A DNA stretch of 16,058 nucleotides, from positions 1 through 16,058 of the IMG/VR virus record IMGVR_UViG_3300029523_000035. One strand, written 5' to 3'. Numbering within the stretch: position 1 is the stretch's first letter; every line of letters begins with the position of its first letter. Below the pieces are notes generated by a model. That model was not told where the DNA came from and ran no database searches. It worked only from the letters and a program-made list of their open reading frames with translations. Origin of the DNA: a virus. Positions 66-16,058 of the stretch are shown here, in pieces. The translations under genes and the position numbers were made by a program.

Positions 66-94
66 AAAACAGTCCAATGATAGGACTGTTTTTA
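57..94 (-). terminator. Rho-independent terminator ending the late operon (sequence is bidirectional)
   Basis: Stem ACAGTCC (69-75) / GGACTGT (83-89) with a 7-nt loop. On the minus strand it is followed by TTTTTATTTTTT. It lies 22 nt downstream of the stop of the last gene (117). Confidence 0.7.
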
Positions 95-116
95 TTACAC
101 GAATTAACATCAATTA

Positions 117-866: not shown

Positions 867-886
867 AATTTTTTGTCCTCCTTAAT

Positions 887-1726: not shown

Positions 1727-1743
1727 ATACTTTCACCTCCTTT

Positions 1744-2496: not shown

Positions 2497-3337
2497 TAAT
2501 CATGGTAGGAAGCTCACTGTTAAAGTCAACTGTCACATTTAGTCCCCATAGTTCATTGATAGTGTTTGCGCATCTTCTTCTTAATGTCAGTCCTACATTT
2601 CTATTAGCTTCAATCTGACCGTTGTTTCCTGCCGTTTCACCTGTAACAAGCCGTTCTCCTTTTTCTACTGGGTTACTTTCATAACCTAAAGATGTCAATA
2701 CTTGTGACCATAAATCTCTTAATTCTTGTTCGCATTTATCTACGATATAAGGAGCGCCCACATCCAGAGCTTTAATATCTTTCAAGTTTAATGAATCGGA
2801 AACTTTTAGAACAGGTAAATAATTATCGTACATTTCTCCCAGTATTTCAAAGCTCATTTTTTCGTTGTCAGAAGAAGAAAGAGCAACAGGCGTACGCTGT
2901 GCATACATATTAATATCCTTTGTTTTCCAAGTATTCGCCATTGCATCGGCATACATCAATGCCTTATAGTAATACGGCATAGTTGAGTAGTTATTCCATA
3001 AGATACAACTGTTTTCTTTACCGTATTCTTCAATATACCCATTTGCAGTATAAGCGATTCTGTCTTGAGGGATATTATAAATATCTGGTAAACCCGATAA
3101 TGAAACATTCATGAATGCATACCCTGCAATATTGTCCTTGATGAATACACCCAAACCGTGCCAAAATAAGGTTTGTTCAATGTACATCGGTAAAATTTCT
3201 TTTGGTAGATTATTCCATTTGTACCTGTTTACAAAGATATCGAAAATATCATAAAAAAAGATAGATTTTATTATTTCAAAATCACTGTTTTTCTTTTTAT
3301 TGATATTTCGTTCGAAAACTCGTAACGGATTTTTCAC
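2438..3337 (-). CDS. Portal / upper collar connector protein (phi29 gp10-like)
   Basis: 299 aa. By-eye matches to phi29 gp10, ours vs gp10: YKWNNLP vs FEWENLP, AQRTPVAL vs AQKTPVLI, GAPYIVDKC vs DAPYVVDKL, KGERLVTGET vs KKERMVTDEV, INELWGLNVTVDF vs INELYGLNVKVKF. Size is similar (309 aa in phi29). Confidence 0.9.
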   Translation of the reverse strand: MKNPLRVFERNINKKKNSDFEIIKSIFFYDIFDIFVNRYKWNNLPKEILPMYIEQTLFWHGLGVFIKDNIAGYAFMNVSLSGLPDIYNIPQDRIAYTANGYIEEYGKENSCILWNNYSTMPYYYKALMYADAMANTWKTKDINMYAQRTPVALSSSDNEKMSFEILGEMYDNYLPVLKVSDSLNLKDIKALDVGAPYIVDKCEQELRDLWSQVLTSLGYESNPVEKGERLVTGETAGNNGQIEANRNVGLTLRRRCANTINELWGLNVTVDFNSELPTMINGYIPDKYMQKGKEGDEIE

Positions 3338-3353
3338 TTATATACACCTCCTT

Positions 3354-4970
3354 TTAGTTATTTAATAACCCGTAATTCCCTATATCATCAGTATGCCACA
3401 AAGTCACGCCATTGTCAAATATATTTCTCAATTTTTTCAATTGGTCTAAATCAATATCACCAGTAAATCCGCAATGAGATGTCTTTACGTAATTCCAATA
3501 GGCTCTTGAGTGTAAATAAGGGGTAGCGATTTTATTAATTGGATACCCGAACTGTTCAAAAAAGCTGTCTGCCATTTCTGCAAATTGCCTTTTACATGAC
3601 ATCTCGTAGAAGTCAACGCCACACTCTTTGATACCTGTCAATACATTTTCTGACAAAGCTTTTCCATGTGTAACCCCAGCGTTTCTGGCTCTGTCTGTCT
3701 GATTTGCTAACATTCCAAGAGCGTCCCAAAAAGCGTTCGTTGTTTTACCTAGTCCATTAAGCCCTCCCTGTAAACTTCCTCCTGCTAACCCTGCTATCGC
3801 TGTGCCTGTCCCTATGGTAGCATCAATGGCAGTATGGACTTGTGATAGGGCTATAGAACTTTTGTTTTGAGCTAGCCATGCACGATATGTGTCAGAGGAG
3901 AACGAACACATTGGAAAAGAGGAGTTAATAAGCGCTTCATTCATTAGTCCATGCCCTAATTCTTCGCGCGTCTTATAGTTTTTAGGTGCTGTGAGAACTT
4001 GTGGCAATGTTGCGATTGTCCCGTAGCTGTCAAATTCGAGAGATTTATCCCGATTATAACTGTATTCATATCTATATATATGTGTGTTCCCTTGATTGTT
4101 GTCAGCTAGACAGAATAGCCATGGGTAGGAGTATAACTTTTTATTTTTTGGTTTATAACCCTCAAAAACATTGTCAGATATCTGCATACTTGTTATTTTA
4201 GGCTTGATTTCTTTCCCTCCTAGAGCAAGTGTACATAATTTTGGAGACATGAACAATCCTACGACGGCATCTTGTGCGCCTTGATTGTTATAATCTTCTA
4301 ACAGTGTGTTAATTCCTTTTAGTCCCTCGTCTGTGGTTACATCATAATGACCGATGCTCCCCCAACAGTACACACCATTTTCTACTCGACCCTCAAACCA
4401 ACTTTGTTCCGCTGTTCCTCTTGTGACAAAGGCGCAACACTCCGTTGGTGTCAAATCCAATTTTTTATGCCGTGAAACGATAGTTTCACCTGTCTCTAAA
4501 TTTACTGGAATTAAATTTGCGCCGATAGAGTCGGCACTTCGTGGTATATGATGATATTCGACAAAACAAGGCTTAATATTTGCATCGTAAAAGTTATTCT
4601 GAAAAACATCTAAAGAAAAATTAATTCTAGTTGTTTTTTCGGATAACCACTCGATAGAGTCGATAAAACAAAAAACCCACTCGTTAGATATCCCACTATT
4701 TTGAAAAGCTAAATAATTGAGATTAAGTGCTTTCATCTCTGTGAATGGTACACGGATATCATAGTTTCCTATTCGAATCGGTGCAAGGTGTGACAAATCA
4801 ACATTATTAATATGTTTTCGGTAAGATTCTAGGTGATTTAATAAGTCCTCTTTTGAGTTGTATAATCTGACATGCTCATATTCGTTAGACCATGGTACTC
4901 CACTATACAATCTTAATTTTGTTTCGGGGTTGCGTGGTGCAACCCCTCCTTGAACTGGTAAATTTATCAT
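3354..4970 (-). CDS. Tail knob / distal tube protein (phi29 gp9-like)
   Basis: 538 aa. The N-terminus VPWSNEYEH matches gp9 VPFSNDYKN. The C-terminus FGYPINK...NYVKTSHCGFTGDIDLDQLKKLRNIFDNGVTLWHTDDIGNY closely matches gp9 YGYKINR...[41 protein letters not shown]. It has a Gly/Ala-rich loop region as in gp9. Confidence 0.9.
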   Translation of the reverse strand: MINLPVQGGVAPRNPETKLRLYSGVPWSNEYEHVRLYNSKEDLLNHLESYRKHINNVDLSHLAPIRIGNYDIRVPFTEMKALNLNYLAFQNSGISNEWVFCFIDSIEWLSEKTTRINFSLDVFQNNFYDANIKPCFVEYHHIPRSADSIGANLIPVNLETGETIVSRHKKLDLTPTECCAFVTRGTAEQSWFEGRVENGVYCWGSIGHYDVTTDEGLKGINTLLEDYNNQGAQDAVVGLFMSPKLCTLALGGKEIKPKITSMQISDNVFEGYKPKNKKLYSYPWLFCLADNNQGNTHIYRYEYSYNRDKSLEFDSYGTIATLPQVLTAPKNYKTREELGHGLMNEALINSSFPMCSFSSDTYRAWLAQNKSSIALSQVHTAIDATIGTGTAIAGLAGGSLQGGLNGLGKTTNAFWDALGMLANQTDRARNAGVTHGKALSENVLTGIKECGVDFYEMSCKRQFAEMADSFFEQFGYPINKIATPYLHSRAYWNYVKTSHCGFTGDIDLDQLKKLRNIFDNGVTLWHTDDIGNYGLLNN

Positions 4971-5203
4971 TCAATTATGACCTCCCTATCGTGGGCAGTT
5001 ATTAATTCTTTATCATTTATTAGCTTAATGGCTACTTTAGTTTTAATAGTTTGTTTCTTATCACAAGGTTTAAATAATACAGCGTTTAAACGGTTATCTA
5101 AATAGTAATATGATGTATCTCTATCCCAATGTAAATTTGAGCCGTCGTTGTTGTATATATCAGTAAAGTACAAATCTTTAATTAAATCGTTTGGGATAAA
5201 CAA
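4967..5203 (-). CDS. Small ORF in the head-fibre (gp8.5) position; probably not independently initiated
   Basis: 78 codons starting from a TTG with no SD. The same frame stays open, with no ATG/GTG/TTG, through the whole 104-nt gap (5204-5307) and into the 3' end of the capsid gene. Its stop overlaps the tail-knob start (ATGA). See the frameshift finding. Confidence 0.4.
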   Translation of the reverse strand: MFIPNDLIKDLYFTDIYNNDGSNLHWDRDTSYYYLDNRLNAVLFKPCDKKQTIKTKVAIKLINDKELITAHDREVIIE

Positions 5204-5307
5204 ATTTGTGTTATTGGCTAAACCAAGCTTATTCTTATTATATTTATTTAATTTTAGTTTAAAAGATGTAACATAGTCATAATAATCTATAGATTTAATA
5301 CTATTAA

Positions 5308-6579
5308 TTACATCTGTTTCGTAAAATTTACAGTCTTTGTGATAGTCTCGTCTGGTCTGTAGATTGCTTTTAACACAATAGTTCCTGTCTCGTCCGCTCC
5401 CGTATGAAGTAAATGTGTCCCTGGGATAACGTAAGTCTTTGCTGAGGTTGCACCGCTGTCAACTTCAAGAGTCACCAAATTCTGATGATACGTGCCAGTT
5501 CCACCTGCCACAGTAACCTCTACTTCCTGCGTCTGCCCAGCTGTATATGTTCCAGCTGTAACACTCAGTGTCGGCTTTTCAACCACAGCGTCTGTTGTAA
5601 ATACGCGAATTGGGTAGAAAGGACTTGCACTGACCATTTCCACCTGTGTATAGAAGTAATTCCAAGATAAGACGTTTGCAAGTCTTTGGTCTGTCATCTC
5701 TTTGAACTGGTCGCGGACATTGAAGAATCGCACATCACAAAGAACTCCCTGTATAGCGCTATTTGCAAATTTGTCTACAATCACTGTCTGAACTGCTACG
5801 TCTGCCTTGTCCATATGGAATGCATACGCTAAAGCGTCAACACTAATCTGTGCGTTAACTTCCGGTGTTGTAATCCAAATCAGATTCGTTGGCATAGCGT
5901 GTGACGTTGCTCCCGCCGGGTTGTTTTCCGGTAATGGGAAGCCAAACTCTCCGACAGCTCGCTTTACCTCAATCAATAACTTTTTCGCTGATGCTTCATC
6001 TACAATCGCGTCAACAGTCACTGCCGGAAGTACCTCTTTTTCATACCCCACATTAATTAAATCACGCATAGCGAGATACTCATCCCAGTTCGCCCCTGTG
6101 ATAGCACTCTCCATTTTTGCCATAATCATATCACGGATGCCATACTCACTTGTAAAAGCTTTTCTCAAGTTGTCATATGTAACCGTGACTGGGTACTGAA
6201 TTTCAAGATTTACATTATGAAATACGCTCATGATGTAAGACTGATACTGCTGAAAAGCGAATTTAAAGTCTGCCTGTGAATCATAGACACGACCTTTGCA
6301 CATATTTACATAAGTTTCTTCGTGTGTCTCACCATAACGCATTGGCTCTTTCTTAAATCGTGCTAACGGATTTCTCCACGCGATACTGTCCACCGTCTGC
6401 ATACCGATGCGGTTAATTAATGACGGAACAATTTCGTTCCGAACAGGGGCAAAATTCAGAATGTTATCATAGACAGCCTGTAAATTGTCTGAGACTTCCA
6501 CAGGCAAGTGGTTCTGAACCTCGAAAGAAAGCTCCTGTTTGACTGCTTTTAAAATGTTTTTATTTGTTGCGTCTGCCAT
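5308..6579 (-). CDS. Major capsid protein (phi29 gp8-like, HK97 fold) with C-terminal Ig-like domain
   Basis: 423 aa; RBS AAGGAGG. SLINRIGMQTV...NPLARFKKEPMRYGETHEETY matches gp8 SLVDRIGLVVI...[21 protein letters not shown], and VDALAYAFHMDKADV matches VDVLAKAFNMNRTDF. The C-terminal ~90 aa (TLSVTAGTYTAGQTQEVEVTVAGG...) looks like a BIG2-type Ig domain, as in gp8. Confidence 0.92.
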   Translation of the reverse strand: MADATNKNILKAVKQELSFEVQNHLPVEVSDNLQAVYDNILNFAPVRNEIVPSLINRIGMQTVDSIAWRNPLARFKKEPMRYGETHEETYVNMCKGRVYDSQADFKFAFQQYQSYIMSVFHNVNLEIQYPVTVTYDNLRKAFTSEYGIRDMIMAKMESAITGANWDEYLAMRDLINVGYEKEVLPAVTVDAIVDEASAKKLLIEVKRAVGEFGFPLPENNPAGATSHAMPTNLIWITTPEVNAQISVDALAYAFHMDKADVAVQTVIVDKFANSAIQGVLCDVRFFNVRDQFKEMTDQRLANVLSWNYFYTQVEMVSASPFYPIRVFTTDAVVEKPTLSVTAGTYTAGQTQEVEVTVAGGTGTYHQNLVTLEVDSGATSAKTYVIPGTHLLHTGADETGTIVLKAIYRPDETITKTVNFTKQM

Positions 6580-6593
6580 TTGTTAAAACCTCC

Positions 6594-6878
6594 TTACTCT
6601 GTCTTACCGTCAAAGTCCAAATCTTCAACGGTAATTTTTTCTTCTGTTTCGTCTTTTGACTCGCCTTTATCATCTGCACGAGTCGTACCCTCTGCCATTT
6701 TTTCCTTAAAGCGCTTTTTATACTCGCTCTCTAGCTTTAAATACTTGTCTTTCCATTCGCTGTCTGTTTCTCCGTCTCTTTCTCCCTCATAATTCTGTAA
6801 AACTTCAATCGCGTCACCGTGTTCCTCAACGTCTGCTACAGCGTCAATTAATTCGTTTAAAGCTTCATTAAAATCCAT
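6594..6878 (-). CDS. Scaffolding protein (phi29 gp7-like, by position and composition)
   Basis: 94 aa, very acidic (Glu/Asp/Lys-rich) and predicted helical. It lies immediately upstream of the capsid gene, as gp7 does in phi29. RBS AAGGAGGA. Confidence 0.6.
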   Translation of the reverse strand: MDFNEALNELIDAVADVEEHGDAIEVLQNYEGERDGETDSEWKDKYLKLESEYKKRFKEKMAEGTTRADDKGESKDETEEKITVEDLDFDGKTE

Positions 6879-6920
6879 GTAAATATCCTCCTTTTTATTT
6901 ATTACCCTTTTACAGTTTTA

Positions 6921-6949
6921 ATTATATCACCACGGAAAGAAAAAGTAAA
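6921..6949 (-). promoter_or_regulatory. Candidate sigma-A promoter ahead of the scaffold/capsid genes
   Basis: On the minus strand: TTTACT (6949-6944), 17-nt spacer, TGaTATAAT (extended -10, TATAAT = 6926-6921). The -35 lies inside the 3' end of the upstream gene. Confidence 0.45.
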
Positions 6950-7934
6950 GAGGCATTTTTTTCTTTTTTCCATGTGGGTGTACTGGGTATGGCGATAATG
7001 TCTGTAAATACGCATACCATTTTAACGCGTTCTTTTTTCTTTCCTCTTCTTTTTCAACTCCTGCACGCTCAAAATTTTTTAAAAATACAGACGCGAGATA
7101 ATCGGGTTCTTTTGTGGACTTTCGAAACTCTTCCCATGATACTGGATATTTTATTGTTTCTATCCATTGTCCACTACTTACAGTTTCTTCATCAAGCCAA
7201 ACACATTGATAATAACCATCTGTGATATCGTACCCGTGAGCGTTCGCCCAATCTGTATAGACTGTAGCTGGTGTCCACTGTACAAGACCATAGCCACCAT
7301 TATAGTTCCCCTCTTTTAAGGACTGCCATAATTCAGGGTTGATATTAGATTCTATCTCCATATTCCCCAACATTCCTGCAATGGCGTTCAAAGTGAAATC
7401 TTTGAAAAACATGGTACTATAGAAAACATAAGCATTGTTTTTCATCTCATCTTCTGTAAGATAACGGTTTCCATGAATCCATTCAAGGGGCATTCCTGCA
7501 CTGTCGCCATAACGATATATCTTTGTCCATGCGGACGGTTTGGAAACATATGTATTAATGCTGACCTGCTCGGGTAATGGATAACGCCCACTGTGCGCTC
7601 CCATAGTGACACCGCCACCCCCAACGCCGTTCCCACTATACACCATTTCTGTATGACCACTACGCCATACAATGTCCCCTGCCTGCCAAGCCTCATTGAT
7701 ACTAATCTCTTTAAATCCTGCCTGTAATAGATATCCCTCCTCTGTTCTTGTGGTGAACCATGGATTCACTGAAAAGAACCCACCTTCTGTAAGTGCTTTT
7801 GAAATAAAAGAGCTACAGTCATAATAAGTAATACCGTTCACGGTCTGTCCTCTTCGGTATTGCTGAGAATATCCAATGTTGGGGGCATTGCACGCATTGA
7901 CCGCCCACTGATAGGCTACATTAATATTTGGCAT
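6927..7934 (-). CDS. Tail-associated peptidoglycan hydrolase (NlpC/P60- or CHAP-like peptidase plus phage tail lysozyme domain; gp13 analogue)
   Basis: 335 aa. The N-terminal half has the Cys/His peptidase signature (YYDCSSFISKAL ... GDIVWRSGHTEMVY). The C-terminal half has the phage tail lysozyme-type motif (AGMLGNMEIESNINP ... GGYGLVQWTP). Its position between the lysis and morphogenesis genes parallels phi29 gp13. Confidence 0.8.
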   Translation of the reverse strand: MPNINVAYQWAVNACNAPNIGYSQQYRRGQTVNGITYYDCSSFISKALTEGGFFSVNPWFTTRTEEGYLLQAGFKEISINEAWQAGDIVWRSGHTEMVYSGNGVGGGGVTMGAHSGRYPLPEQVSINTYVSKPSAWTKIYRYGDSAGMPLEWIHGNRYLTEDEMKNNAYVFYSTMFFKDFTLNAIAGMLGNMEIESNINPELWQSLKEGNYNGGYGLVQWTPATVYTDWANAHGYDITDGYYQCVWLDEETVSSGQWIETIKYPVSWEEFRKSTKEPDYLASVFLKNFERAGVEKEEERKKNALKWYAYLQTLSPYPVHPHGKKKKMPLYFFFPW

Positions 7935-7950
7935 TTGCTATCCTCCTTAA

Positions 7951-7968
7951 ATGTTTCACGTGAAACAT
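7951..7968. promoter_or_regulatory. parS: parS-type site (perfect 18-bp palindrome ATGTTTCACGTGAAACAT)
   Basis: The core TGTTTCACGTGAAACA (7952-7967) equals the chromosomal parS consensus TGTTNCACGTGAAACA. It lies between the endolysin stop and the RBS of the tail hydrolase gene (AAGGAGG starts 2 nt away). Confidence 0.85.
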
Positions 7969-7970
7969 TT

Positions 7971-7986
7971 TGTTCCACGTGAATAA
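7971..7986. promoter_or_regulatory. Degenerate parS-like site (14/16)
   Basis: TGTTCCACGTGAATAA matches TGTTNCACGTGAAACA at 14/16 positions. It lies 2 nt from the perfect copy. Confidence 0.5.
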
Positions 7987-7990
7987 AAAA

Positions 7991-8977
7991 TTAAAGCATA
8001 TATAACATATCTTTTGCGTAAACGAATTCAGTTCCACAAGCGCGTGCCAGTCCTCCGCCAAATGTCCCAGGGCATTCTACTCCGTTCGGGTCTTTTCCCT
8101 GTAACAAACATATGATTTCCAGTGCTGTCACAAGATACTGAGTTTCACCCCTTTTTACATAATGTTTTCCTGCTTTTGCCCTTGTTTTTTTACCTACAAT
8201 ACCGTCTTCTGCAATGGTATAGCCATAGTCCTTATTCATTGCTCTCTGCACTACACGAACCGCCATTCTTTTAGTGTTTCTTCCAACAATGCCGTCAACA
8301 GCGATTTGAACACCCGTAAAATTAATGGCGTGCTGTTGCCCTAAAGCAATCAATTCATTTCTTGGTTTTGAGTGACTAGTAGACGGAGGCGGTGTAGTAG
8401 GTGTAGCACTTGAAACTCCGTAGTCTTTGTAAACGTGGTTCACATCACATCTTCCGTTAATACCATCAACAGACCCGTTACTAGAATACTGCCAAATATC
8501 AACATTATCTACACCTAACACATTCGAGTATCTAGCTATCCACAAATCATATCCCCATGTTTCACCGATATAACTCTCAAACCATGATTTACTAGCGTAG
8601 ATTCCTGCTTTATATCCATGCGTTAGCATTGCATCACAAAAGCGCTTTGCGTTGTGCTTTGCTACTCTTTGTGTCCCTTTTTCTTCGCTGTCAAAAAAGA
8701 CAGGTAGATTAGGTGTGTGTCCTTGTAACAATCTAAGACAATGATTGATTTCACCCTCGATTCTAGCTGTGGTTTTTGCGTAGGAATAAAAATATACTCC
8801 ATATGGAATACCCAACCGTTCACATTCACTGACGTTTCGACTCCATTGTTTATCGTCTTGCGATGCCATGTCTTGCCCGTATCCGCATCGAATAATTACA
8901 TAATCGACAGCGTTTTTTAATCTCTCAAAATCAATGACACCGTTATGATATGAGATATCTACAGCTTTTTTACTCAT
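7991..8977 (-). CDS. Endolysin: GH25 muramidase with C-terminal peptidoglycan-binding repeats
   Basis: 328 aa. The N-terminus VDISYHNGVIDF...YVIIRCGYG...GIPYGVYFYSY...DLWIARYS...IWQYSS.G.VDGI.G.CDVN is the classic GH25 pattern. A Pro/Thr/Ser linker follows. Two DGIVG(R/K)(N/K)T motifs are typical of PG_binding_1 domains. Confidence 0.85.
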   Translation of the reverse strand: MSKKAVDISYHNGVIDFERLKNAVDYVIIRCGYGQDMASQDDKQWSRNVSECERLGIPYGVYFYSYAKTTARIEGEINHCLRLLQGHTPNLPVFFDSEEKGTQRVAKHNAKRFCDAMLTHGYKAGIYASKSWFESYIGETWGYDLWIARYSNVLGVDNVDIWQYSSNGSVDGINGRCDVNHVYKDYGVSSATPTTPPPSTSHSKPRNELIALGQQHAINFTGVQIAVDGIVGRNTKRMAVRVVQRAMNKDYGYTIAEDGIVGKKTRAKAGKHYVKRGETQYLVTALEIICLLQGKDPNGVECPGTFGGGLARACGTEFVYAKDMLYML

Positions 8978-9206
8978 GTTTCATGTCCTCCTTACTATCA
9001 AAAATGTCACAGATACGTTGTAGTGCTAACGTATTATTATTTAGCGCGTTCGTAATATCTGTCATTTCTTCCTTGTGTTCTTCCGTCATTTTTTCAATTT
9101 TTTGGTCGTTTTTGTCCTCCCTGTACTTTACATACCACATGGACGCACACGCAACCACGGTCGGAAGTCCTAAACTATTAATTAATGTGATAACTTCATT
9201 TATCAT
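8970..9206 (-). CDS. Holin-like protein, BhlA/UviB family
   Basis: 78 aa from ATG 9206 (RBS AAGGAGGTG, 5-nt spacer). It has a single N-terminal TM segment (LINSLGLPTVVACASMWYV) followed by a charged coiled-coil tail, as in BhlA/UviB. It overlaps the endolysin start by 8 nt. The longer ORF-track version (to 9296) reads through a promoter and the parS sites and is rejected. Confidence 0.7.
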   Translation of the reverse strand: MINEVITLINSLGLPTVVACASMWYVKYREDKNDQKIEKMTEEHKEEMTDITNALNNNTLALQRICDIFDSKEDMKHE

Positions 9207-9227
9207 GATATCACCTCCTTTTTTTCT

Positions 9228-9256
9228 ATCATAACACAAATAGATTTGTTTGTAAA
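9228..9256 (-). promoter_or_regulatory. Sigma-A type promoter for the lysis/structural operon
   Basis: On the minus strand: TTTACA (9256-9251), 17-nt spacer, TGtTATGAT (-10 = 9233-9228). The holin RBS lies about 10 nt downstream. Confidence 0.65.
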
Positions 9257-9262
9257 TAAAAA

Positions 9263-9280
9263 ATGTTTCACGTGAAACAT
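9263..9280. promoter_or_regulatory. parS: parS-type site (perfect 18-bp palindrome)
   Basis: ATGTTTCACGTGAAACAT. It lies 6 nt from the -35 of the 9228-9256 promoter. On the minus strand it is followed by a T-tract, so it could also act as an intrinsic terminator hairpin. Confidence 0.85.
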
Positions 9281-9295
9281 TGTCCACGTGAAACA
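9280..9295. promoter_or_regulatory. Degenerate parS-like site (14/16)
   Basis: TTGTCCACGTGAAACA has a perfect right half and two mismatches in the left half. It abuts the perfect copy. Confidence 0.5.
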
Positions 9296-9415
9296 TGTTG
9301 TACGTTACAAAATAATCGAATCAAAGGGGACGCAAAGCCAAAAATTGATATCGAACTACTTGTTCATGTGCGTGTATATCAATTACAATGTTCGTGTTAT
9401 TTTGGGTACAACATT

Positions 9416-9444
9416 ATGATAACACATATAATTTAAAATGTCAA
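9416..9444 (-). promoter_or_regulatory. Strong sigma-A type promoter
   Basis: On the minus strand: TTGACA (9444-9439), 17-nt spacer, TGtTATCAT (-10 = 9421-9416). The -35 shares its first base with the parS palindrome 9444-9461. Confidence 0.7.
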
Positions 9445-9461
9445 TGTTTCACGTGAAACAT
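9444..9461. promoter_or_regulatory. parS: parS-type site (perfect 18-bp palindrome)
   Basis: ATGTTTCACGTGAAACAT. It overlaps the stop codon of the packaging ATPase gene on one side and the -35 TTGACA on the other. Confidence 0.85.
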
Positions 9462-10507
9462 TAAAAAGATATGGCATCAAATATCATATTCTTACACTCC
9501 AAATTTTCAAACATAAGTAAACCTCTATTGAAATATTCACGCAACATTGCTACAATATAATGCGTTGAATTCACACGTATAGCTGTGTTGTCTATGACAT
9601 CATTTTTTGTAAAGCATATCCGCATCGGAAAACTTTCATCTGCCCCTGTTGATATATACATACATGTATCATATCTTCTTGCGTTGTACATTTTTTCGTT
9701 GAACTTAATAGTGCAAATATACCGTGATTGTCCTGTTGGTTTCCCTATTAAGCAATCATTATCATTCAAATATCTATTTTCACTTGCATACGCATTATAA
9801 CTAGCACCTTGAAACGCTCTAGCAATACCACTTTCCTTATAAGCTGTGGACGCATTTTCATTATACGTTCGCTCAAATACCCAACCATCTCCACGCAATA
9901 TTTTAGTATTATATTTTAGCATTTTATTGATACCAAAAACGCTATAATAAGGGTTCAACAATGACACGGTATTTGATGCCATATATAACATAACTCTTCT
10001 ATGCTGTTTTCCGTGACCTGCACTAATCGTTGTAAGCAACGATAAAAGTTTATTTACTTCATTAGATAAATATACGTTATCTTCATCTTGATATTCGTCA
10101 AAAAATACAGAACGAATATTGACAAATAACCCACGCATTTTTTTATACTTTCTTGCAACAGATAAAGCTAAACAATATCCACATGGCTCTTCATTTAGAA
10201 ATAGTTGTATCAATGAGCCATTCATTAAACTCTTTTCAGTCATAACATAACCGTCAAATTGTTCAGATATATCACCAAAATATGTATCAGCACAGTTTTT
10301 CATATCAACAACATTCCTGTATAAATAAATAAATTGGTTTTCGGGTCTGTATTTATCCTTTAAAAAATCAGATACTTGTCTAGACTTAATGGAATAACTT
10401 TTGCCTGCTGTTCTATTTCCATCTACAATATAAATATCGGGTGTTTCCCCATTTTTATCTTTTAAAGTTAATAATCTATCGCAATGATAATATCCATCAT
10501 TCATCAT
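9461..10507 (-). CDS. DNA encapsidation (packaging) ATPase, phi29 gp16-like
   Basis: Walker A is DGNRTAGKSY and Walker B is VFFDEYQDE. At ~348 aa it is comparable to gp16. The preferred start is ATG 10507 (GGAGGTG 6 nt upstream). ATG 10522 has no SD and in fact forms part of that SD. Confidence 0.88.
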   Translation of the reverse strand: MMNDGYYHCDRLLTLKDKNGETPDIYIVDGNRTAGKSYSIKSRQVSDFLKDKYRPENQFIYLYRNVVDMKNCADTYFGDISEQFDGYVMTEKSLMNGSLIQLFLNEEPCGYCLALSVARKYKKMRGLFVNIRSVFFDEYQDEDNVYLSNEVNKLLSLLTTISAGHGKQHRRVMLYMASNTVSLLNPYYSVFGINKMLKYNTKILRGDGWVFERTYNENASTAYKESGIARAFQGASYNAYASENRYLNDNDCLIGKPTGQSRYICTIKFNEKMYNARRYDTCMYISTGADESFPMRICFTKNDVIDNTAIRVNSTHYIVAMLREYFNRGLLMFENLECKNMIFDAISF

Positions 10508-10524
10508 TTTTAGCACCTCCATTC

Positions 10525-10542
10525 ATGTTTCACGTGAAACAT
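10525..10542. promoter_or_regulatory. parS: parS-type site (perfect; extends to the 20-bp palindrome CATGTTTCACGTGAAACATG, 10524-10543)
   Basis: Sits between the early-operon terminator and the ATPase RBS. Confidence 0.85.
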
Positions 10543-10544
10543 GA

Positions 10545-10578
10545 GTTTTATAAAAGAGGTGGCATATAGCCACCCCCC
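10545..10578 (-). terminator. Rho-independent terminator of the early transcription unit
   Basis: On the minus strand: GGGGTGGC-tatat-GCCACCTC (8-bp stem, one G-U pair) followed by TTTTATAAAA. It lies 43 nt after the stop of the 116-aa gene. Confidence 0.7.
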
Positions 10579-10620
10579 TTTAGAAGAAGAGAAATAAAAT
10601 GGTATTCTCACGGCATCATA

Positions 10621-10971
10621 TTATAAATTTGATACGTCTAAGGTACAATTGATATAATCGCGTCCTGCTTTTGTCTTTCCGCTAATTTTAATGATAGAGA
10701 ATTTTTCTCCCTCCATGACACTTTCAATGTCTTTCAAAGACTGTCTAAAGGTTGCAGACTGTCCAGAATACACTTTCTTATCCGGCGTAATAATACTTAC
10801 AATCTCCTGCACATCTCCGTTATCTTTGATATCATCAAAGATAAGATATCCGTCAATTGGGATAGATTCTCCATCATCAATATTTTTTAATGGCTCAATG
10901 TCTGGTGCTGTAGTCATAAGATACTTCTCGACCTTTGTAAACTCTCTACTCATTTCTTTAATTTCTACCAT
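10621..10971 (-). CDS. Hypothetical early protein (116 aa); candidate DNA-binding replication accessory protein by position only
   Basis: Good RBS (AGGAGGTAAAG). Second gene of a short unit with its own promoter, placed between the polymerase and the terminator. This is analogous to phi29 genes 5/6 (SSB/DBP). I recognise no motif. Confidence 0.55.
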   Translation of the reverse strand: MVEIKEMSREFTKVEKYLMTTAPDIEPLKNIDDGESIPIDGYLIFDDIKDNGDVQEIVSIITPDKKVYSGQSATFRQSLKDIESVMEGEKFSIIKISGKTKAGRDYINCTLDVSNL

Positions 10972-10995
10972 AATTCTTTACCTCCTGTTTTCCTG

Positions 10996-11295
10996 TTAAT
11001 CTTCCTTTTTCATTTCCTGCAACTCTGCTTCAGTAACAATTTTTTCACTCTTAACATCTGAGTTGAGTAAGAACTGCTCATCAGTCATAACACGTTTTTC
11101 CAATTTAAACTTAATGTCTAAAATGGAAACAATGTCCCCTTTGTACTGCTTTTCAATCAAGATTTCCGCTTTATCTCTTGTCTTGCAATTTGGTAATTTC
11201 TCGTCAAAGTAATCTTTCTTGATTACCCCTGTCTCCTTGTCTTTGTAGATTCTTTCTACAGATACCTCCGCTGTGACTAATGTCCTTGTAAACAT
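10996..11295 (-). CDS. Hypothetical early protein (99 aa)
   Basis: Start ATG 11295 is preceded by AAAGGAGGAAAACAAG. The ORF-track extension to 11382 runs through the promoter and lacks an RBS. The protein is Lys/Glu-rich. No motif recognised. Confidence 0.6.
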   Translation of the reverse strand: MFTRTLVTAEVSVERIYKDKETGVIKKDYFDEKLPNCKTRDKAEILIEKQYKGDIVSILDIKFKLEKRVMTDEQFLLNSDVKSEKIVTEAELQEMKKED

Positions 11296-11349
11296 CTTGT
11301 TTTCCTCCTTTTTTCTGTTTCTTTGAGTGTGAATTGCAATGTAATATGT

Positions 11350-11426
11350 TTTATTTATTACATTATTATAATAACACAACAACTAGATATAGTCAAGTGT
11401 TATATTATAATTTTTATTTTTTATCT
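11350..11426. repeat. Direct repeat copy A (~77 bp) carrying a promoter
   Basis: About 85% identical to 11624-11695. The first 28 nt (TTTATTTATTACATTATTATAATAACAC) are identical in both copies. Confidence 0.85.
11368..11396 (-). promoter_or_regulatory. Sigma-A type promoter (repeat copy A)
   Basis: On the minus strand: TTGACT (11396-11391), 17-nt spacer, TGtTATTAT (-10 = 11373-11368). It drives the 99-aa and 116-aa genes. Confidence 0.7.
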
Positions 11427-11601
11427 AAATCTCTTACATATATACTATCTGTATCAGCATATAAAAAACCATCACGAATAGTGATAAGTTTAGCCGTAAT
11501 CTCAGCGTTTTTTAAATTTGTATCAGTTCTTACATTACTACTATGTGACATTGAGCTTACCCCGTACAAGCTGTTTAACGGATGTTCAATTTTTTACCCA
11601 T
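11414..11601 (-). pseudogene. DNA polymerase B-derived relic / mini-ORF, frame-interrupted at an A6 run
   Basis: A strong RBS (AAAGGAGG) and ATG 11601 open only 8 codons (MGKKLNIR*). The -1 frame is open from 11593 to 11414 and reads KIEHPLNSLYGVSSMSHSSN...ITIRDGFLYADTDSIYVRDLDKK. Compare this phage's own polymerase: LNNLYGKFAMSDNSS (motif B) and FCYADTDSIHLIGLDK (motif C). One extra A in the run 11590-11595 would fuse the frames into a 62-aa ORF. Confidence 0.4.
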
Positions 11602-11623
11602 CTTTGTTCCTCCTTTTTTCTAC

Positions 11624-11695
11624 TTTATTTATTACATTATTATAATAACACGACGCTAAAATATAGTCAAGTATTATATCATAATTTTTTTATCT
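11624..11695. repeat. Direct repeat copy B (~72 bp) carrying a promoter; overlaps the polymerase stop codon
   Basis: See copy A. Confidence 0.85.
11642..11670 (-). promoter_or_regulatory. Sigma-A type promoter (repeat copy B)
   Basis: On the minus strand: TTGACT (11670-11665), 17-nt spacer, TGtTATTAT (-10 = 11647-11642). It lies immediately after the DNA polymerase stop (11674). Confidence 0.7.
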
Positions 11696-13560
11696 TTTTG
11701 AGCGTGGATTTTAAAGTCTTTATTTCTTAATACAATACCACCTTTCACACGCTCTGCTTTTAAATTACAACTATCCATACTAAGACCTGTAGATAACTCA
11801 GATATGTCCTTTTCTTCTTCAATAAATTTACGTTTAGCTTGGCTACTCATTCCACAAGCTTTAATATCAAGATAAGGCTTGCAAGGGACATGATTTTCTT
11901 CAACTATATGCTCTGCATAAGTCTTTTGGCGCTCATAATACGCAAAATCAAAAGTACTTTCACATTTCCAGCAACAAAAATTTGTCGGGTGTTCTACCAC
12001 CTTGTTTGCTTTGTCAAGTCCAATTAAATGAATCGAATCTGTATCAGCGTAGCAAAAACGGTCATAATTTGCCATAGCGTGTCGAATTGTAAAATTCATG
12101 GCATAAGATGTAATGGCACTACCTATTGGAATATATCCTACTTTCTTTTCGTGTTCCTCATGCAGAATAAATCTAATAATACCATCATCGTCAAGATAAG
12201 GCTCTTTATAAGAGGAGTTATCCGACATTGCAAATTTCCCATAAAGATTATTTAAAAAGAGTTTTGCTTTCTGTCTCTTAAAACCTTTTGAAGTTCTTTT
12301 CTCTTCACCGTATTTATCTATGTATTCATCGAAAAAACCTGTCCTTGCATAGAACCACACATAATCATATATGACCAAGTCAAAAATATCGTAAGTTTCC
12401 TTAAACAACTCCCAGTCGGTGCAAGTCATAGTGAGTGTAATATTTGTATCATGCATCTGTCCATCAATATCACGATAATATCGGTAGTATTCGCCTTTAT
12501 ACCTAACGTTGGAGCTATATAGATTTTCATTCGCCTTATATAATGTACTCTGTCTAATATGTACCCATGGAAAAGCTCCTTTTTTTAACTGAAAACGACA
12601 GTTAAATCGAATGAAAAAATATTTATTATCGGAGCTTATAAGTTCATCGGGTGGCGCTCCCCTATGGTATTCCCCGTGCCCAAATGGATATTTGTTGCCA
12701 CTAATGCTATGCATCATGGACGGGTACAGAGAGTTTACGTCAAGCACTAAACCCCAACCAACTACCGTGTGCGCATATTGAGGATTAACATAACACCATC
12801 CCCCGTGAAATGATTTATGAACATAATCCCACTGATTCCATACACCTGTTATTGATTCATCAAGATAATCTTCTCTGATATCGGGAAACAACTTATCATA
12901 TTGTTTCTTTTCATAAAAGCCTTTAAATTCTGCCAAACAGCACGAACCTATTGTCAATTTATCATGCTTTTCGTCAAACATCATTTCTAATGCTTCTTTT
13001 AACACTAACACATCATTTTCAATATATTTCTTTTCACTTTCTGTTATTTCGCAATAAGCGTACCTTTCACCCTCATAATTCATGTCTAATTTTTGGTGTT
13101 TTGTGTCAAATGATTTCCCGATATTTTTCAATGAGGATGGCATAAGCTTTAAAGAGTTTCGAATCTCCAAAAAAGTCTTATTCCATTTTAATTTAACCCA
13201 GTACCATGAGCCCATATCAGATATACAGGTTTGAAATTCTTTTGATTTCATTTCTTTATCTTTACAGTGCACCCAACGCCAACCCTCTTTTAACAGAAAA
13301 TCAATGATGAATGAACCGTCAAAAGCGAGGTTATGAAAGTACAATATATTATTGCCTTTCATTGTCAAAAACCTGTTTAAAAAATCTCTTATCGAATGAG
13401 TTATTGTTACAGTTTCAGTGTTGTCATATAAAGCCACATCAGCCCCACTCCATACTTCTGTACTGTCTTGTTTTTTACCTTTTTCTTGCTCTACTTTTTC
13501 ACCCCATACCGTTGTCTCAAAGTCACAAGCCCAAAAGGTTATTTGCTTTTTTCGTGGCAT
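11674..13560 (-). CDS. Protein-primed family B DNA polymerase (phi29 gp2-like)
   Basis: 628 aa. Motifs seen: ExoI CDFETT, ExoII YFHNLAFDGSFI, ExoIII YIENDVLVL, motif A LDVNSLYPSMM, motif B KLFLNNLYGKF, motif C YADTDSIH, and KxY QKTYAEH. The long spacing between motifs B and C is consistent with a TPR2 insertion. Confidence 0.97.
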   Translation of the reverse strand: MPRKKQITFWACDFETTVWGEKVEQEKGKKQDSTEVWSGADVALYDNTETVTITHSIRDFLNRFLTMKGNNILYFHNLAFDGSFIIDFLLKEGWRWVHCKDKEMKSKEFQTCISDMGSWYWVKLKWNKTFLEIRNSLKLMPSSLKNIGKSFDTKHQKLDMNYEGERYAYCEITESEKKYIENDVLVLKEALEMMFDEKHDKLTIGSCCLAEFKGFYEKKQYDKLFPDIREDYLDESITGVWNQWDYVHKSFHGGWCYVNPQYAHTVVGWGLVLDVNSLYPSMMHSISGNKYPFGHGEYHRGAPPDELISSDNKYFFIRFNCRFQLKKGAFPWVHIRQSTLYKANENLYSSNVRYKGEYYRYYRDIDGQMHDTNITLTMTCTDWELFKETYDIFDLVIYDYVWFYARTGFFDEYIDKYGEEKRTSKGFKRQKAKLFLNNLYGKFAMSDNSSYKEPYLDDDGIIRFILHEEHEKKVGYIPIGSAITSYAMNFTIRHAMANYDRFCYADTDSIHLIGLDKANKVVEHPTNFCCWKCESTFDFAYYERQKTYAEHIVEENHVPCKPYLDIKACGMSSQAKRKFIEEEKDISELSTGLSMDSCNLKAERVKGGIVLRNKDFKIHAQKDKKIMI

Positions 13561-13577
13561 TTATACTCACCTCTTTT

Positions 13578-14288
13578 TTATTCATTCTCAATAACAATAT
13601 CTTGTTCCTGTAGAAATTCTTGAAAATCTTCTGTAGAACTAAGAACACCCATTCTTCGCAAAATATTCCAAAACACAGCGTCAACCGTAGCTTTGTCCAT
13701 ATATGGCTCTGTTGGGAATGCTTCGGGTTCTTTTGCGTATGTATAAGCAAATAACGCTCTTTCTTTATCTGACGCATTAGCCAGTAAAGCATCTGTTTTT
13801 TCTCTAAGGTAACTCGCTGTTTTTGGTACAAAACTTTCTAAAGAATCGTACCACGAATCAATAATAGCTTCATAATCTAATACAGGTGTTGTTTCAATAA
13901 CTATTATACCCGTCCTTTGTAGCTTTTTCAATTCTTCAACCGTAGTATAACCTTGTATTCTAGCATATTCCTGCTCTTGCGGAGTTAATTTTATAAAAAC
14001 TCTGTTTCTTTCAAGAGCGTGTTTACGTCCATATTCTTTAGAAGTTATAACCTCGCCAGTAAGCATATCAACAACCGTTGCATTTTTTCGTATTTCTTTT
14101 GCAATCTGCTTTTTAATTCTATCTATTGAAACTTGCGTTGGATTTTTTACTCGCTTAATTATCTTTACTTGTACACCTTGTTTCTGTTGATTTCTAACAC
14201 GAGCTAGATATTTATTATATTCTTTAGCATATTGCTGTTGCAATATAGACGCTTTTGTTTGTTTCTTTTTAATACGCTTATTTGCCAT
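13578..14288 (-). CDS. Putative terminal protein (phi29 gp3 analogue)
   Basis: 236 aa, immediately upstream of the polymerase as in phi29. It has a very basic N-terminal third (MANKRIKKKQTK...RVRNQQKQ) and an acidic C-terminal region. ITRs imply a terminal protein. Assigned by synteny and composition only. Confidence 0.6.
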   Translation of the reverse strand: MANKRIKKKQTKASILQQQYAKEYNKYLARVRNQQKQGVQVKIIKRVKNPTQVSIDRIKKQIAKEIRKNATVVDMLTGEVITSKEYGRKHALERNRVFIKLTPQEQEYARIQGYTTVEELKKLQRTGIIVIETTPVLDYEAIIDSWYDSLESFVPKTASYLREKTDALLANASDKERALFAYTYAKEPEAFPTEPYMDKATVDAVFWNILRRMGVLSSTEDFQEFLQEQDIVIENE

Positions 14289-14291
14289 ATT

Positions 14292-14486
14292 TTAGTTACC
14301 CTCCTTTTGCACCTTTCTTAATAATAATCCGTGAGGTACACGGGTATATTCAATGCTGTCTCCCGGGTGGATGTCTAAATCTCGGATTGCTTCTTTTGGT
14401 ATCATGACACGGGCGGTGTAACCGCCTGTGCCTCCTTTCGTAAACATAACTTTGTAACGCAATAATTGATTTGTTAATTTTGCCAT
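14292..14486 (-). CDS. AbrB/SpoVT-family DNA-binding protein (putative transcriptional regulator)
   Basis: 64 aa. ARVMIPKEAIRDLDIHPGDSIEY...LLLRKV fits the swapped-hairpin SpoVT-AbrB signature (vtIPkeiRd.LgikeGD.ve). It occupies the slot of phi29 gene 4 (regulator p4), just upstream of the terminal protein gene. Confidence 0.7.
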   Translation of the reverse strand: MAKLTNQLLRYKVMFTKGGTGGYTARVMIPKEAIRDLDIHPGDSIEYTRVPHGLLLRKVQKEGN

Positions 14487-14496
14487 ATTTTCCTCC

Positions 14497-14961
14497 TTAT
14501 AATATGTTAAATACTTTCCATGTAAATTCTGAAAAGTGTTCTGCTATGAATGATACAGAAGATAAGAAAAGATATAGTAAAAATGTTGCCATAATTATAA
14601 CCGATAAGATTCCCAAAAAAGATGATATTTTTTCTAATTTGGTAAATGGCTCTTTTTCTTCTGTAGTTGTATGCCTTGCTATCCATTCTGTAGGATTTTC
14701 ATGCAATGTTTCACGTGAAACATTATCTGAATCGATTTTATGATTTTGAAATGTCTCTATATAGTCTTTATTTCCCTTAGTATCAATGGTATAGGCTTCT
14801 CCATCAAAACCCACATAAATGTTTTTATTAGTATACAAATTTTCTACCCAGTAGGGTTCGTCTACAAATAAGGCTATGTAGTTGTTTAGTGAGTTTTCAG
14901 TGTGAAAGTCGTGTATTTCTACACCAAAATCTGTGATATTATGTAATCTGTATTTAATCAT
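14497..14961 (-). CDS. Early membrane-anchored protein of unknown function
   Basis: 154 aa; RBS AAGGAGAGG. It has a C-terminal hydrophobic segment (ISSFLGILSVIIMATFLLYLFLSSVSF). It contains an in-frame parS palindrome (coding NVSRET). Confidence 0.6.
   Translation of the reverse strand: MIKYRLHNITDFGVEIHDFHTENSLNNYIALFVDEPYWVENLYTNKNIYVGFDGEAYTIDTKGNKDYIETFQNHKIDSDNVSRETLHENPTEWIARHTTTEEKEPFTKLEKISSFLGILSVIIMATFLLYLFLSSVSFIAEHFSEFTWKVFNIL
14706..14723. promoter_or_regulatory. parS: parS-type site (perfect 18-bp palindrome), intragenic
   Basis: ATGTTTCACGTGAAACAT inside the 154-aa early gene. Confidence 0.8.
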
Positions 14962-15379
14962 TTTTACCTCTCCTTAAAAATCTTGAATAATATCTTGTTC
15001 CCCATATATCGTCTATAGAATTTAAAATATCCTCATATTTACTATAGTCTACGTCATTAATTTGTTGACATAATGTTGCCACTCTGCCCCATTGAATATG
15101 AAAACTATCTCTAGCATTATCATATAAACCCCCTAACACATCTTTAAAAAATTCAATTAATTCTACACTAATACTTGTACTAAATATATATAATTCATCT
15201 TTAATATAAAAACAATAACAAGTATTATCTATTGAAACCGTAACAATAGAATCTTTAGTGCTATACCTCTGCACTATTGTTAATAAGGATTCGTCTGTGT
15301 ATAACGCCTCACTTCTAACTATGTGCCCTGTATTAGAATTAATTACAACGACTTTAACTCTATTAATTTCTTCGTTCAT
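14954..15379 (-). CDS. Hypothetical early protein (141 aa)
   Basis: RBS AAAGGAGGTAT. Its stop overlaps the next start (ATGA-type coupling). No motif recognised. Confidence 0.6.
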   Translation of the reverse strand: MNEEINRVKVVVINSNTGHIVRSEALYTDESLLTIVQRYSTKDSIVTVSIDNTCYCFYIKDELYIFSTSISVELIEFFKDVLGGLYDNARDSFHIQWGRVATLCQQINDVDYSKYEDILNSIDDIWGTRYYSRFLRRGKND

Positions 15380-15395
15380 TTTTTATACCTCCTTT

Positions 15396-15695
15396 TTAAC
15401 ATAAATCATCTATACTATTATTAACAAACTCTAATTTCTCACATACAAATTTCTTACAATATAATCTACCATCACTTGTTACAATAAAAATATCACTAAT
15501 ATGTGTAGACGCATCTTCGATAAAATATACAATCACGTCAAATAATTTATCGTCTAATGATAATGTTGTGTGCAATGTCTCATTTGCTTTATCTTTTAAA
15601 TAATCAATAAAGCCATCAACAGTGCTAGACTTCATAATATCACAAAGTTCCTCACCAAAGCTATCCCATATTTTTTCGTCATATTTAATCTTCAT
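15396..15695 (-). CDS. Hypothetical early protein (99 aa, acidic)
   Basis: RBS AAAGGAGGAAT; tightly packed in the early operon. No motif recognised. Confidence 0.6.
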   Translation of the reverse strand: MKIKYDEKIWDSFGEELCDIMKSSTVDGFIDYLKDKANETLHTTLSLDDKLFDVIVYFIEDASTHISDIFIVTSDGRLYCKKFVCEKLEFVNNSIDDLC

Positions 15696-15697
15696 TT

Positions 15698-15916
15698 TTA
15701 TTCCTCCTTTTCATAGTATCTTTTTTCCCAACAAGCATATAATTCACGTAGTCTGTTTTCTTCATTATCTCGCTCTACATCTGTAAAGTCTGATAACTCT
15801 AAATAGGCTGATATCCTGCCCATTTGCATTATGAAAGCTACTAAAGCTTTATCATACTTCCCTAACTCAATGTCTTGTTTAAATGTGTCATAAAATAATT
15901 GATACTTTTCATTCAT
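15698..15916 (-). CDS. Hypothetical early protein (72 aa)
   Basis: First gene after the right-end promoter; RBS AAGGAGGGA. No motif recognised. Confidence 0.6.
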   Translation of the reverse strand: MNEKYQLFYDTFKQDIELGKYDKALVAFIMQMGRISAYLELSDFTDVERDNEENRLRELYACWEKRYYEKEE

Positions 15917-15963
15917 TATTTTTTCCCTCCTTATATTTACTAGGTTTCCTTGTTTCTATAATT

Positions 15964-15992
15964 ATAATACCACACGCCTGTTCGTTTGTCAA
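15964..15992 (-). promoter_or_regulatory. Right-end early sigma-A promoter
   Basis: On the minus strand: TTGACA (15992-15987), 17-nt spacer, TATTAT (15969-15964). The -35 lies 1 nt inside the ITR boundary, and the A-rich inner ITR could serve as an UP element. Confidence 0.7.
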
Positions 15993-15993
15993 G

Positions 15994-16058
15994 TATTTTT
16001 TCGTGCTTTTTTAATCAAAAGGGGGTCGTGGTCTCATTGGGAATAACGAAAGCCCTCT
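15994..16058. repeat. Right inverted terminal repeat (65 bp)
   Basis: Reverse complement of nt 1-65 with one mismatch (16026). Confidence 0.95.

Follow-up and report, generated by a model that had tools for sequence, protein, structure and literature searches.

Descriptions of the prohead (packaging) RNA, pRNA, have treated it, ever since it was discovered in 1987, as unique to phi29 and its relatives among the Bacillus phages (PMC5066667; PMC11476376, a 2024 review). Its CE and D loops pair between molecules, and its structure is conserved at a sequence similarity of only 12% (PMC5066667). In podoviruses of the B. cereus group (DLc1, MG-B1 and Stitch type), pRNAs have been predicted from their structure, their paired left-hand and right-hand loops and nearby promoters (PMC9965433, PMC12670572), and a 2025 survey with Infernal started from three seed pRNAs, all from Bacillus phages, with no mention of Clostridium or metagenomes in its text (PMC12670572). 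Here we analysed IMG/VR virus record IMGVR_UViG_3300029523_000035 over its whole length (positions 1 to 16,058; the window), in which an earlier reading of the letters alone, the sequence-only reading, had noted a candidate pRNA-like transcript beside the packaging ATPase gene. The minus strand of 9300-9409 almost certainly specifies a real, conserved and structured non-coding RNA, and this RNA very probably has the architecture of a pRNA together with covarying, interlocking loops. That it is a prohead RNA, forming a new sequence family in a Clostridia-infecting branch of phi29-like phages, we consider likely. The decision rests on comparison, not on folding energy, with covarying pairs and loops supporting the pRNA-like reading.

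Transcription unit and fold

The RNA lies between the ATPase and holin genes in a gap of 254 nt (9207-9460), which the sequence-only reading had put at 164 bp because it used an over-long open reading frame (ORF) at 8970-9296. All elements of the unit described below are on the minus strand, and RNA nucleotides are numbered so that nt n is window position 9410-n. A sigma-A-type promoter at 9416-9444 (TTGACA, a 17-nt spacer and TG-n-TATCAT) agrees with the consensus at 11 of 12 positions and has an extended -10, bearing out the near-consensus promoter noted there before; its hexamers are kept in the 78 relatives compared below, and its spacer varies freely. The predicted start is the G at 9409, 7 nt past the -10 and the first base of the terminal helix, which agrees with the start near 9409 proposed earlier. 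Among relatives the initial GUACCC is conserved and the 6 nt between the -10 and G9409 are variable. Both this start and the 3′ end of the transcript are predictions from sequence signals.

An intrinsic terminator follows at 9254-9296, consisting of a 14-bp stem (9296-9263) and a U tract (9262-9254; UUUUUUAUUU). The hairpin and U tract had been recognised in the sequence-only reading, with a stem (9280-9263) shorter than the one found here. The stem is built from half a parS site and a full parS site, is also present in the minimum-free-energy (MFE) fold, and belongs to a terminator that is 94% conserved among relatives; by analogy with phi29, the terminator may double as a 3′ domain of the kind that domain II is in pRNA. 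A separate holin/late-operon promoter (9228-9256; TTTACA, a 17-nt spacer and TG-n-TATGAT; 10 of 12) is conserved in relatives as well.

The gap had been described as lacking any ORF. Two mechanical ORFs on the plus strand, at 9263-9436 and 9288-9419, do overlap the RNA, and the longer of them was rejected as an antisense gene, as it measures 6-70 amino acids (aa) and carries frameshifts in relatives. Because of these frameshifts and lengths, and because the intergenic length varies (261-269 nt among relatives), the RNA region is non-coding. A megablast search of the region against 50,697 phage records returned zero matches.

The first 110 nt of the transcript fold so that its ends pair. The terminal helix joins GUAC (9409-9406) to GUAC (9303-9300) in 4 bp, and the A helix joins CAAAAUAA (9404-9397) to UUAUUUUG (9315-9308). 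Between them, a bulged C at 9405 (nt 5) faces an internal loop, UAAC (9307-9304), and this asymmetric interruption, with the C opposite U-N-AC at nt 103-106, is conserved in every long-form clade. Its sequence is unlike that of phi29, in which a CCA bulge in the A helix is needed for ATPase docking. The B helix pairs CGAACA (9389-9394) with UG-A-UUCG (9323-9317), and the C helix pairs AAUUGAUAU (9376-9384) with AUAUCAAUU (9351-9343) over 9 bp. The counterpart of the CE (right-hand) loop of pRNA is a 9-nt bulge on the 5′ side, ACACGCACA (9367-9375), which contains ACGCA at 9373-9369; it is followed by the E hairpin, UGAAC-AAGUA-GUUCG (9352-9366), whose GAAC/GUUC stem shows compensatory changes in relatives and whose AAGUA loop motif is found again in distant clades. 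A UUU linker (9340-9342), matched by a UUU at the same junction position in phi29 pRNA, connects the C helix with the D hairpin, GG-CUUUGCGUC-CC (9327-9339), the counterpart of the left-hand loop, which carries UGCGU at 9334-9330. The 2-bp D stem would be weak alone, which makes the D helix a putative one; the D stems of other clades are longer (GGG/CCC, CGG/CCG, ACGG/CCGU).

The MFE fold of 9409-9254 contains the terminal, A, B and C helices and GAAC/GUUC. It thus reproduces the end-to-end helices drawn in the sequence-only reading (GUAC/GUAC, CAAAAUAA/UUAUUUUG and CGAA/UUCG) and its enclosed 9-bp helix (AAUUGAUAU/AUAUCAAUU) extended by GAAC/GUUC, all of which also covary. A direct sequence check confirmed that ACGCA is complementary to UGCGU; the latter, which had been placed in a plain single strand, sits in the loop of the GG/CC hairpin.

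As a separate observation, the inverted terminal repeat (ITR; 30-45 and 16014-16029) contains GTCCCCCTTTTGATT, which resembles GUCCCCUUUGAUU at RNA nt 79-91 (9319-9331), the most conserved block of the RNA (CCCUUUGAUU across clades). The likeness may be chance, or it may link the packaging RNA to the genome end.

Covariation of helices and loops

More than 100 IMG/VR contigs encode an ATPase 85-99% identical to that of the window, and 78 distinct homologous regions were compared. The RNA is under selective constraint: mean identity to the relatives is 90.4% for the 110-nt domain, compared with 83.9% for the ATPase gene (68% at its third codon positions) and 79% for the holin gene. On the proposed structure 98.6% of the alignment cells are paired, and changes on both sides occur at 8 pairs, as against 3.1±0.9 in shuffles (0/500) and 0-4 in slid controls. 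Pair 2:109, for example, is UA in 65 and CG in 9 sequences, and pair 17:92 is GC in 49, AU in 19 and GU in 7; pair 9:99 occurs as AU, GC and UG, and pair 16:93 as CG, UA and UG, with the bulge of the B helix shifting among variants. Pairs 45:57, 46:56 and 47:55 are compensatory (GAAC/GUUC, AGAC/GUCU, GGC/GCC). The C helix is near-invariant inside the window clade. RNAalifold independently recovered the A, C and E helices and the terminator.

Many of the pairs are G-U, and pair 44:58 most often occurs as U-G. Such pairs would become mismatches in DNA or in a transcript of the opposite strand, which places the structure in the minus-strand RNA. This observation bears on the idea that the locus is a conserved DNA element (a ParB/Spo0J parS cluster, a promoter region or a cruciform) with an incidental RNA fold. 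Two perfect parS sites and two promoters do fall within the 254 nt, and the only thermodynamically outstanding hairpin is that of parS and the terminator; however, the 110 nt between the DNA sites are themselves 90% conserved, the compensatory changes and many G-U pairs work only in the minus-strand RNA, and distant clades keep the RNA without parS in the terminator. We therefore regard a purely DNA-level explanation as very improbable.

Contigs whose ATPases are 57-63% identical to that of the window carry a promoter-RNA-terminator unit in the equivalent place. Their RNAs share the 110- to 112-nt layout and are very different in sequence, with, for example, a GC-rich C helix. A covariance model, R1, was built from 29 such RNAs; the cross-clade MAFFT alignment (A3) mis-registers the 5′ strand and served only to seed R1, and the comparison across clades relied on a covariance-model realignment (A4). 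R1 gave one match per locus or genome searched, and its single match in the whole window genome is the pRNA-like domain at 9300-9409 (minus strand), with 114 bits. Outside the seed it found an RNA in L109 (3201-3309; 43 bits, E~1e-9), where a 195-aa ORF (2586-3173) lies between the ATPase gene and the RNA, which means that the linkage of RNA and ATPase gene is loose by one gene.

In the cross-clade alignment of 55 RNAs, 26 of the 34 pairs change on both sides, compared with 19.4±1.5 in shuffles and 12-17 in slid controls, and 88% of the cells are paired, compared with 70% in shuffles. Both-sided changes were seen at 6 of 8 pairs in the A helix, 6 of 6 in the B helix and 9 of 9 in the C helix. 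Covariation, suggested as a check in the sequence-only reading, thus establishes the helices, through the 8 pairs that change on both sides in the close relatives and the 26 that do so across clades.

A search with an ATPase profile added 80 loci, out of at least 465 relative contigs in IMG/VR, and the RNA was examined in ∼190 loci altogether. At nearly all of the 80, an RNA of similar architecture, with complementary loops specific to the lineage, comes right after the ATPase stop. One large clade resembles Clostridium phage CS229P1 in having the RNA where two genes converge, with nothing like an operon after it, and two of these CS229P1-type RNAs (L228, L173) gave weak full-length matches to R1. 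The linkage of the RNA to the ATPase gene survives rearrangements of the flanking genes, and every phage found to have the RNA also encodes a gp16-type ATPase and a gp10 connector. R1 returned zero matches against phiCPV4 and the short HM2-type RNAs; in phiCPV4, a phage of C. perfringens, 31 nt follow the ATPase gene and no RNA was found at that spot, the rest of the genome not having been searched.

The two loops change together between lineages. The CE-loop and D-loop segments are ACGCA/UGCGU in the window clade, GCGUUA/UAACGC in the L081 clade, GAAUCAA/UUGAUUC in L105, CCCA/UGGG in L107, UCCA/UGGA in L110, GGAUA/UAUCC in L111 and GUACA/UGUAC in L109, and in the cultured phages they are GUAGUCU/AGACUAC (HM2, 7 bp) and CUGUA/UACAG (CS229P1). 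An automatic parse of 185 RNAs yielded 87 distinct loop combinations, of which 59 form at least 4 contiguous Watson-Crick bp; when D loops were shuffled among lineages (5000 shuffles), only 17.7±3.3 (maximum 30) did so. Parsing was restricted to the domain, after an initial descriptor and domain finders had been too stringent or had chosen terminators instead; some parses are still wrong, which makes the statistic conservative. The duplexes of at least 4 bp comprise 23 different solutions, and loops that stay complementary through at least 23 sequence solutions are the classic pRNA signature. The predicted loop duplex of the window has 5 bp and -6.3 kcal/mol, and that of phi29 has 4 bp and -2.1 kcal/mol. 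Six CS229P1-type loci (L188, L196, L206, L212, L217, L231) have the loop pair AACC/GGUU, identical to that of phi29 pRNA; this identity is presumably convergent.

These data also bear on whether the RNA could simply be a cis-acting leader or attenuator that governs whether transcription of the early/ATPase region continues into the holin-lysis-structural operon, the alternative offered in the sequence-only reading. A location at the early/late boundary, with a strong terminator immediately before the late genes and flanking parS sites at which host ParB could modulate transcription, would suit such an element, but the RNA has a near-consensus promoter and a terminator of its own, and a separate conserved late promoter follows that terminator. 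The CS229P1-type homologue at a convergent junction has nothing downstream to regulate, and in L109 the RNA is separated from the ATPase gene by another ORF. No alternative terminator/antiterminator pairing appeared in the folds, and a covarying loop-loop contact has no role in a leader. The alternative is weakened accordingly, and we judge it improbable.

Genome context and parS sites

Its ITRs of ∼65 nt, at 1-65 and 15994-16058 with one mismatch, identify the window as a complete linear genome, the start being the reverse complement of the end. This 16,058-bp genome is phi29-like, and every gene is on the minus strand. Just inside the right ITR an early promoter points leftward (TTGACA, 17 nt, TATTAT). 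The protein families matched were PF03175, PF05894, PF25622 and PF20934, plus PF05352, and the gene set comprises a protein-primed polymerase B, a gp16-type ATPase, a holin, a GH25 endolysin, a gp13-like lysin, a phi29-type capsid protein, a tail knob and a gp10 connector.

The gp16-type DNA-packaging ATPase (9461-10522, minus strand; PF05894, E = 5e-30), the presumed protein partner of the RNA, aligns with residues 21-324 of the 332 in phi29 gp16 (PDB 7JQQ; E = 5e-22). The presumed docking site is the gp10-type connector (2438-3337, minus strand; PF05352, E = 6e-48), which starts at a GTG with a strong ribosome-binding site (RBS) and has a basic N-terminus, MKNPLRVFERNINKKKNS (segment 3284-3337). 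The pRNA-binding segment of phi29 gp10 is at its N-terminus, and MKNPLRVFERNINKKKNS is reminiscent of it, which suggests by analogy that this end of the connector may bind RNA. The first gene past the RNA unit is the holin gene (8970-9206, minus strand; phrog_4898 holin, E = 3e-5), with the RBS GGAGGTG upstream of the ATG at 9206. This RBS-backed start gives a protein of 78 aa, whereas the longest ORF (8970-9296; 108 aa, start at 9296) crosses the late promoter and the RNA terminator; automatic annotation would probably over-extend the holin and hide the intergenic region. The gp13-like protein (6927-7934) has two domains, one amidase/endolysin-like at the N-terminus and one of the phage tail lysozyme type (PF18013) at the C-terminus, and is distinct from the GH25 endolysin at 7991-8977. 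No tRNA or tmRNA was found.

By ATPase similarity the nearest cultured phages are the Clostridium phages CS229P1-3 (37%), whose host is Clostridium symbiosum, and HM2 (36%), along with contigs from human faeces; the ATPases of Bacillus Salasmaviridae are ∼27% identical to that of the window. A scan of genome contigs for the host returned a single contig, nearly identical to the window, which sits in the bin of an uncultured Clostridia metagenome-assembled genome.

The parS consensus of B. subtilis is a 16-bp palindrome, TGTTNCACGTGAAACA, and in phi29 the parS sites and host Spo0J serve entrapment in spores. A scan of the window genome gave eight parS matches where 0.17 would be expected, and five of them are perfect (TGTTTCACGTGAAACA). 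One perfect site lies inside the RNA terminator (9264-9279, with a degenerate copy at 9280-9295), and another comes directly past the ATPase stop and abuts the -35 of the RNA promoter (9445-9460). The others are at 7952-7967, 10526-10541 and 14707-14722, and degenerate copies are at 7971 and 9280. Four of the perfect sites are intergenic, beside promoters, RBSs or terminators. Phi29 likewise has five parS sites (PMC2731898). The placement of the predicted sites suggests two possible roles for host ParB, in segregating the genome and in modulating transcription. In the L080/L081 clade the RNA ends in an ordinary hairpin terminator without parS, and L081-L104 have 2-4 tandem parS sites (TTGATTCATGTTTCACGTGAAACAT each) between the late promoter and the RBS of the first late gene, ∼230-330 nt past the ATPase stop (∼2850-2900 in L081).

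Packaging function and comparison with known pRNAs

If the RNA acts as a pRNA, its mode of action can be sketched by analogy with phi29. A strong sigma-A-type promoter would fire at G9409, and the parS-built terminator would end a transcript of ∼150 nt. In its first 110 nt the terminal, A and B helices would join the 5′ and 3′ ends and thereby close a three-way junction, with one arm formed by the 9-bp C helix, the 9-nt CE loop and the capping E hairpin and the other, past UUU, by the short D hairpin with its 9-nt loop. ACGCA of the CE loop would then pair with the UGCGU that an adjacent copy carries in its D loop. Copies joined head to tail in this way would form a ring on the empty prohead, at its gp10 connector, and the paired 5′/3′ helix would dock the gp16 ATPase. 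Intermolecular pairing, the ring, binding to connector and ATPase, and a requirement for packaging are all modelled here on phi29.

The main residual rival is a monomeric structured RNA in which the same loops form an intramolecular pseudoknot, with a non-packaging job (for example in regulation, in sponging a protein or in sensing a ligand) and a convergent likeness to pRNA. Loop covariation shows pairing and not whether it occurs within or between molecules, which fits such an RNA as well. So do the lack of detectable homology, in either direction, between the known and the new models and a gene position that differs from most Bacillus pRNAs. Yet the element order equals that of pRNA down to the 9-nt 5′ bulge and the UUU linker, the phages that have the RNA always have a gp16-type ATPase and a gp10 connector too, the RNA stays by the ATPase gene despite rearrangements, and no riboswitch or small RNA (sRNA) family of Rfam matches it. 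We consider the monomeric alternative unlikely, though more credible than a leader or a DNA element.

Several results weigh against assigning the RNA to the pRNA class. Sequence does not distinguish a kissing contact between molecules from a pseudoknot within one. Inside the window clade the loop pairing is conserved without covarying, and L011 loses the fifth pair; the GG/CC stem of the D hairpin is only 2 bp long, is invariant in 54 of 54 sequences and never varies in this clade. The RNA gene has a mid-genome place (9300-9409 of 16,058), unlike in most Bacillus phages. The Rfam model RF00044 (Phage_pRNA), which scored phi29 at 145 bits as a positive control, gave no match at its gathering score in the window or at E≤10 in a 700-nt region around the window RNA and in six relatives, and R1 gave zero matches to phi29 pRNA and to Bacillus phage DK1. 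With no cross-matches in either direction, common descent with the Bacillus pRNAs is not demonstrated and convergence is possible. The folding z-score, another check suggested in the sequence-only reading, was -3.26 against shuffles for the 156-nt unit, a value that stems from the parS/terminator hairpin, and -0.13 for the 110-nt domain alone, no better than shuffles; thermodynamics is thus uninformative either way, and the MFE z-score was dropped as evidence.

The failure of RF00044 is weak counter-evidence, because this model was also blind to DK1 (L249; B. cereus group, Northropvirinae), in whose whole genome it found nothing at E≤0.01; the curated model is thus narrower than the functional class. 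Rfam scans otherwise returned only chance matches to microRNA and sRNA models, due to the parS hairpin. On balance the pRNA-like reading, first proposed from the letters alone, has been supported at every point that could be tested at the level of sequence.

It is probable, in our view, that RNA-dependent packaging extends past the Bacillus phi29 group, in the form of a second pRNA family, unrelated in sequence and matching in structure, in hundreds of gut and environmental Clostridia phages. Full-text literature searches found no earlier report of a pRNA outside Bacillus phages, whether in Clostridium or in metagenomic phages, with most subscription journals outside their coverage; this agrees with the sequence-only reading, which knew of none outside the phi29 group. 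If the assignment is true, the long-held Bacillus-only view of pRNA is challenged, and pRNA is either ancestral to a wider phi29-like radiation or evolved twice, so that these data would help to choose between an ancient relic and a recurrent invention. It would also provide at least 23 natural kissing-loop 'addresses' in a gene tied to the ATPase gene. Why the packaging motor needs an RNA would become testable by comparing the cultured HM2 and CS229P1-3 systems with phi29. A conserved 'empty' intergenic region of many human-gut phages would be explained, and RNA nanotechnology would be able to draw on dozens of three-way junctions and kissing-loop pairs from nature, several of them predicted to be more stable than that of phi29.

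Among described systems the closest is the pRNA of the phi29 group (phi29, PZA, B103, M2/Nf, SF5 and GA-1, all of Bacillus). The Rfam structure line for phi29 runs from a closing helix through a 9-bp C helix, 9 nt unpaired on the 5′ side only, a 4-bp E hairpin, the 3′ strand of the C helix, UUU and the D hairpin back to the closing helix. The window RNA has the same elements in the same order, namely paired 5′ and 3′ ends closing a three-way junction, a 9-bp C helix, a 9-nt 5′ bulge, an E hairpin (5 bp here), UUU and a D hairpin. Both could be parsed with a single descriptor, which on phi29 returns the known AACC/GGUU pair. Watson-Crick complementarity joins the bulge to the D loop in both, and these loops covary between lineages. 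As in phi29, the window RNA is predicted to have its own promoter, to start at the terminal helix and to continue from a domain of ∼110-120 nt into a 3′ hairpin domain. Both RNAs are encoded by small phi29-like podoviruses whose polymerase is protein-primed and which have a gp16 ATPase and a gp10 connector.

The window RNA is unlike that of phi29 in having an extra B helix and 3- to 4-nt spacers between the closing helix and the junction, and in its D hairpin, which has a 2-bp stem and a 9-nt loop where phi29 has 6 bp and 5 nt. Its gene lies mid-genome, directly after the ATPase gene, whereas that of phi29 is at the left genome end; the pRNA genes of GA-1 and Karezi are likewise non-terminal (PMC9965433). 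Its terminator doubles as a parS site, and its hosts are gut Clostridia, not Bacillus.

The predicted pRNAs of the B. cereus-group phages are similarly divergent and recognisable by structure rather than by sequence, although those phages are Bacillus Salasmaviridae with mostly terminal pRNA genes. In the cultured phages HM2 (LT600745) and CS229P1-3 (OP172772-4), whose records (HM2 and CS229P1) annotate no RNA after the ATPase gene, the counterpart of the window RNA differs in detail: that of HM2 is shorter (85 nt) and without the B helix, and that of CS229P1 starts right at the ATPase stop codon, at a convergent junction. All of them nevertheless have an RNA after the ATPase gene that shares the architecture of the window RNA and its complementary loops.

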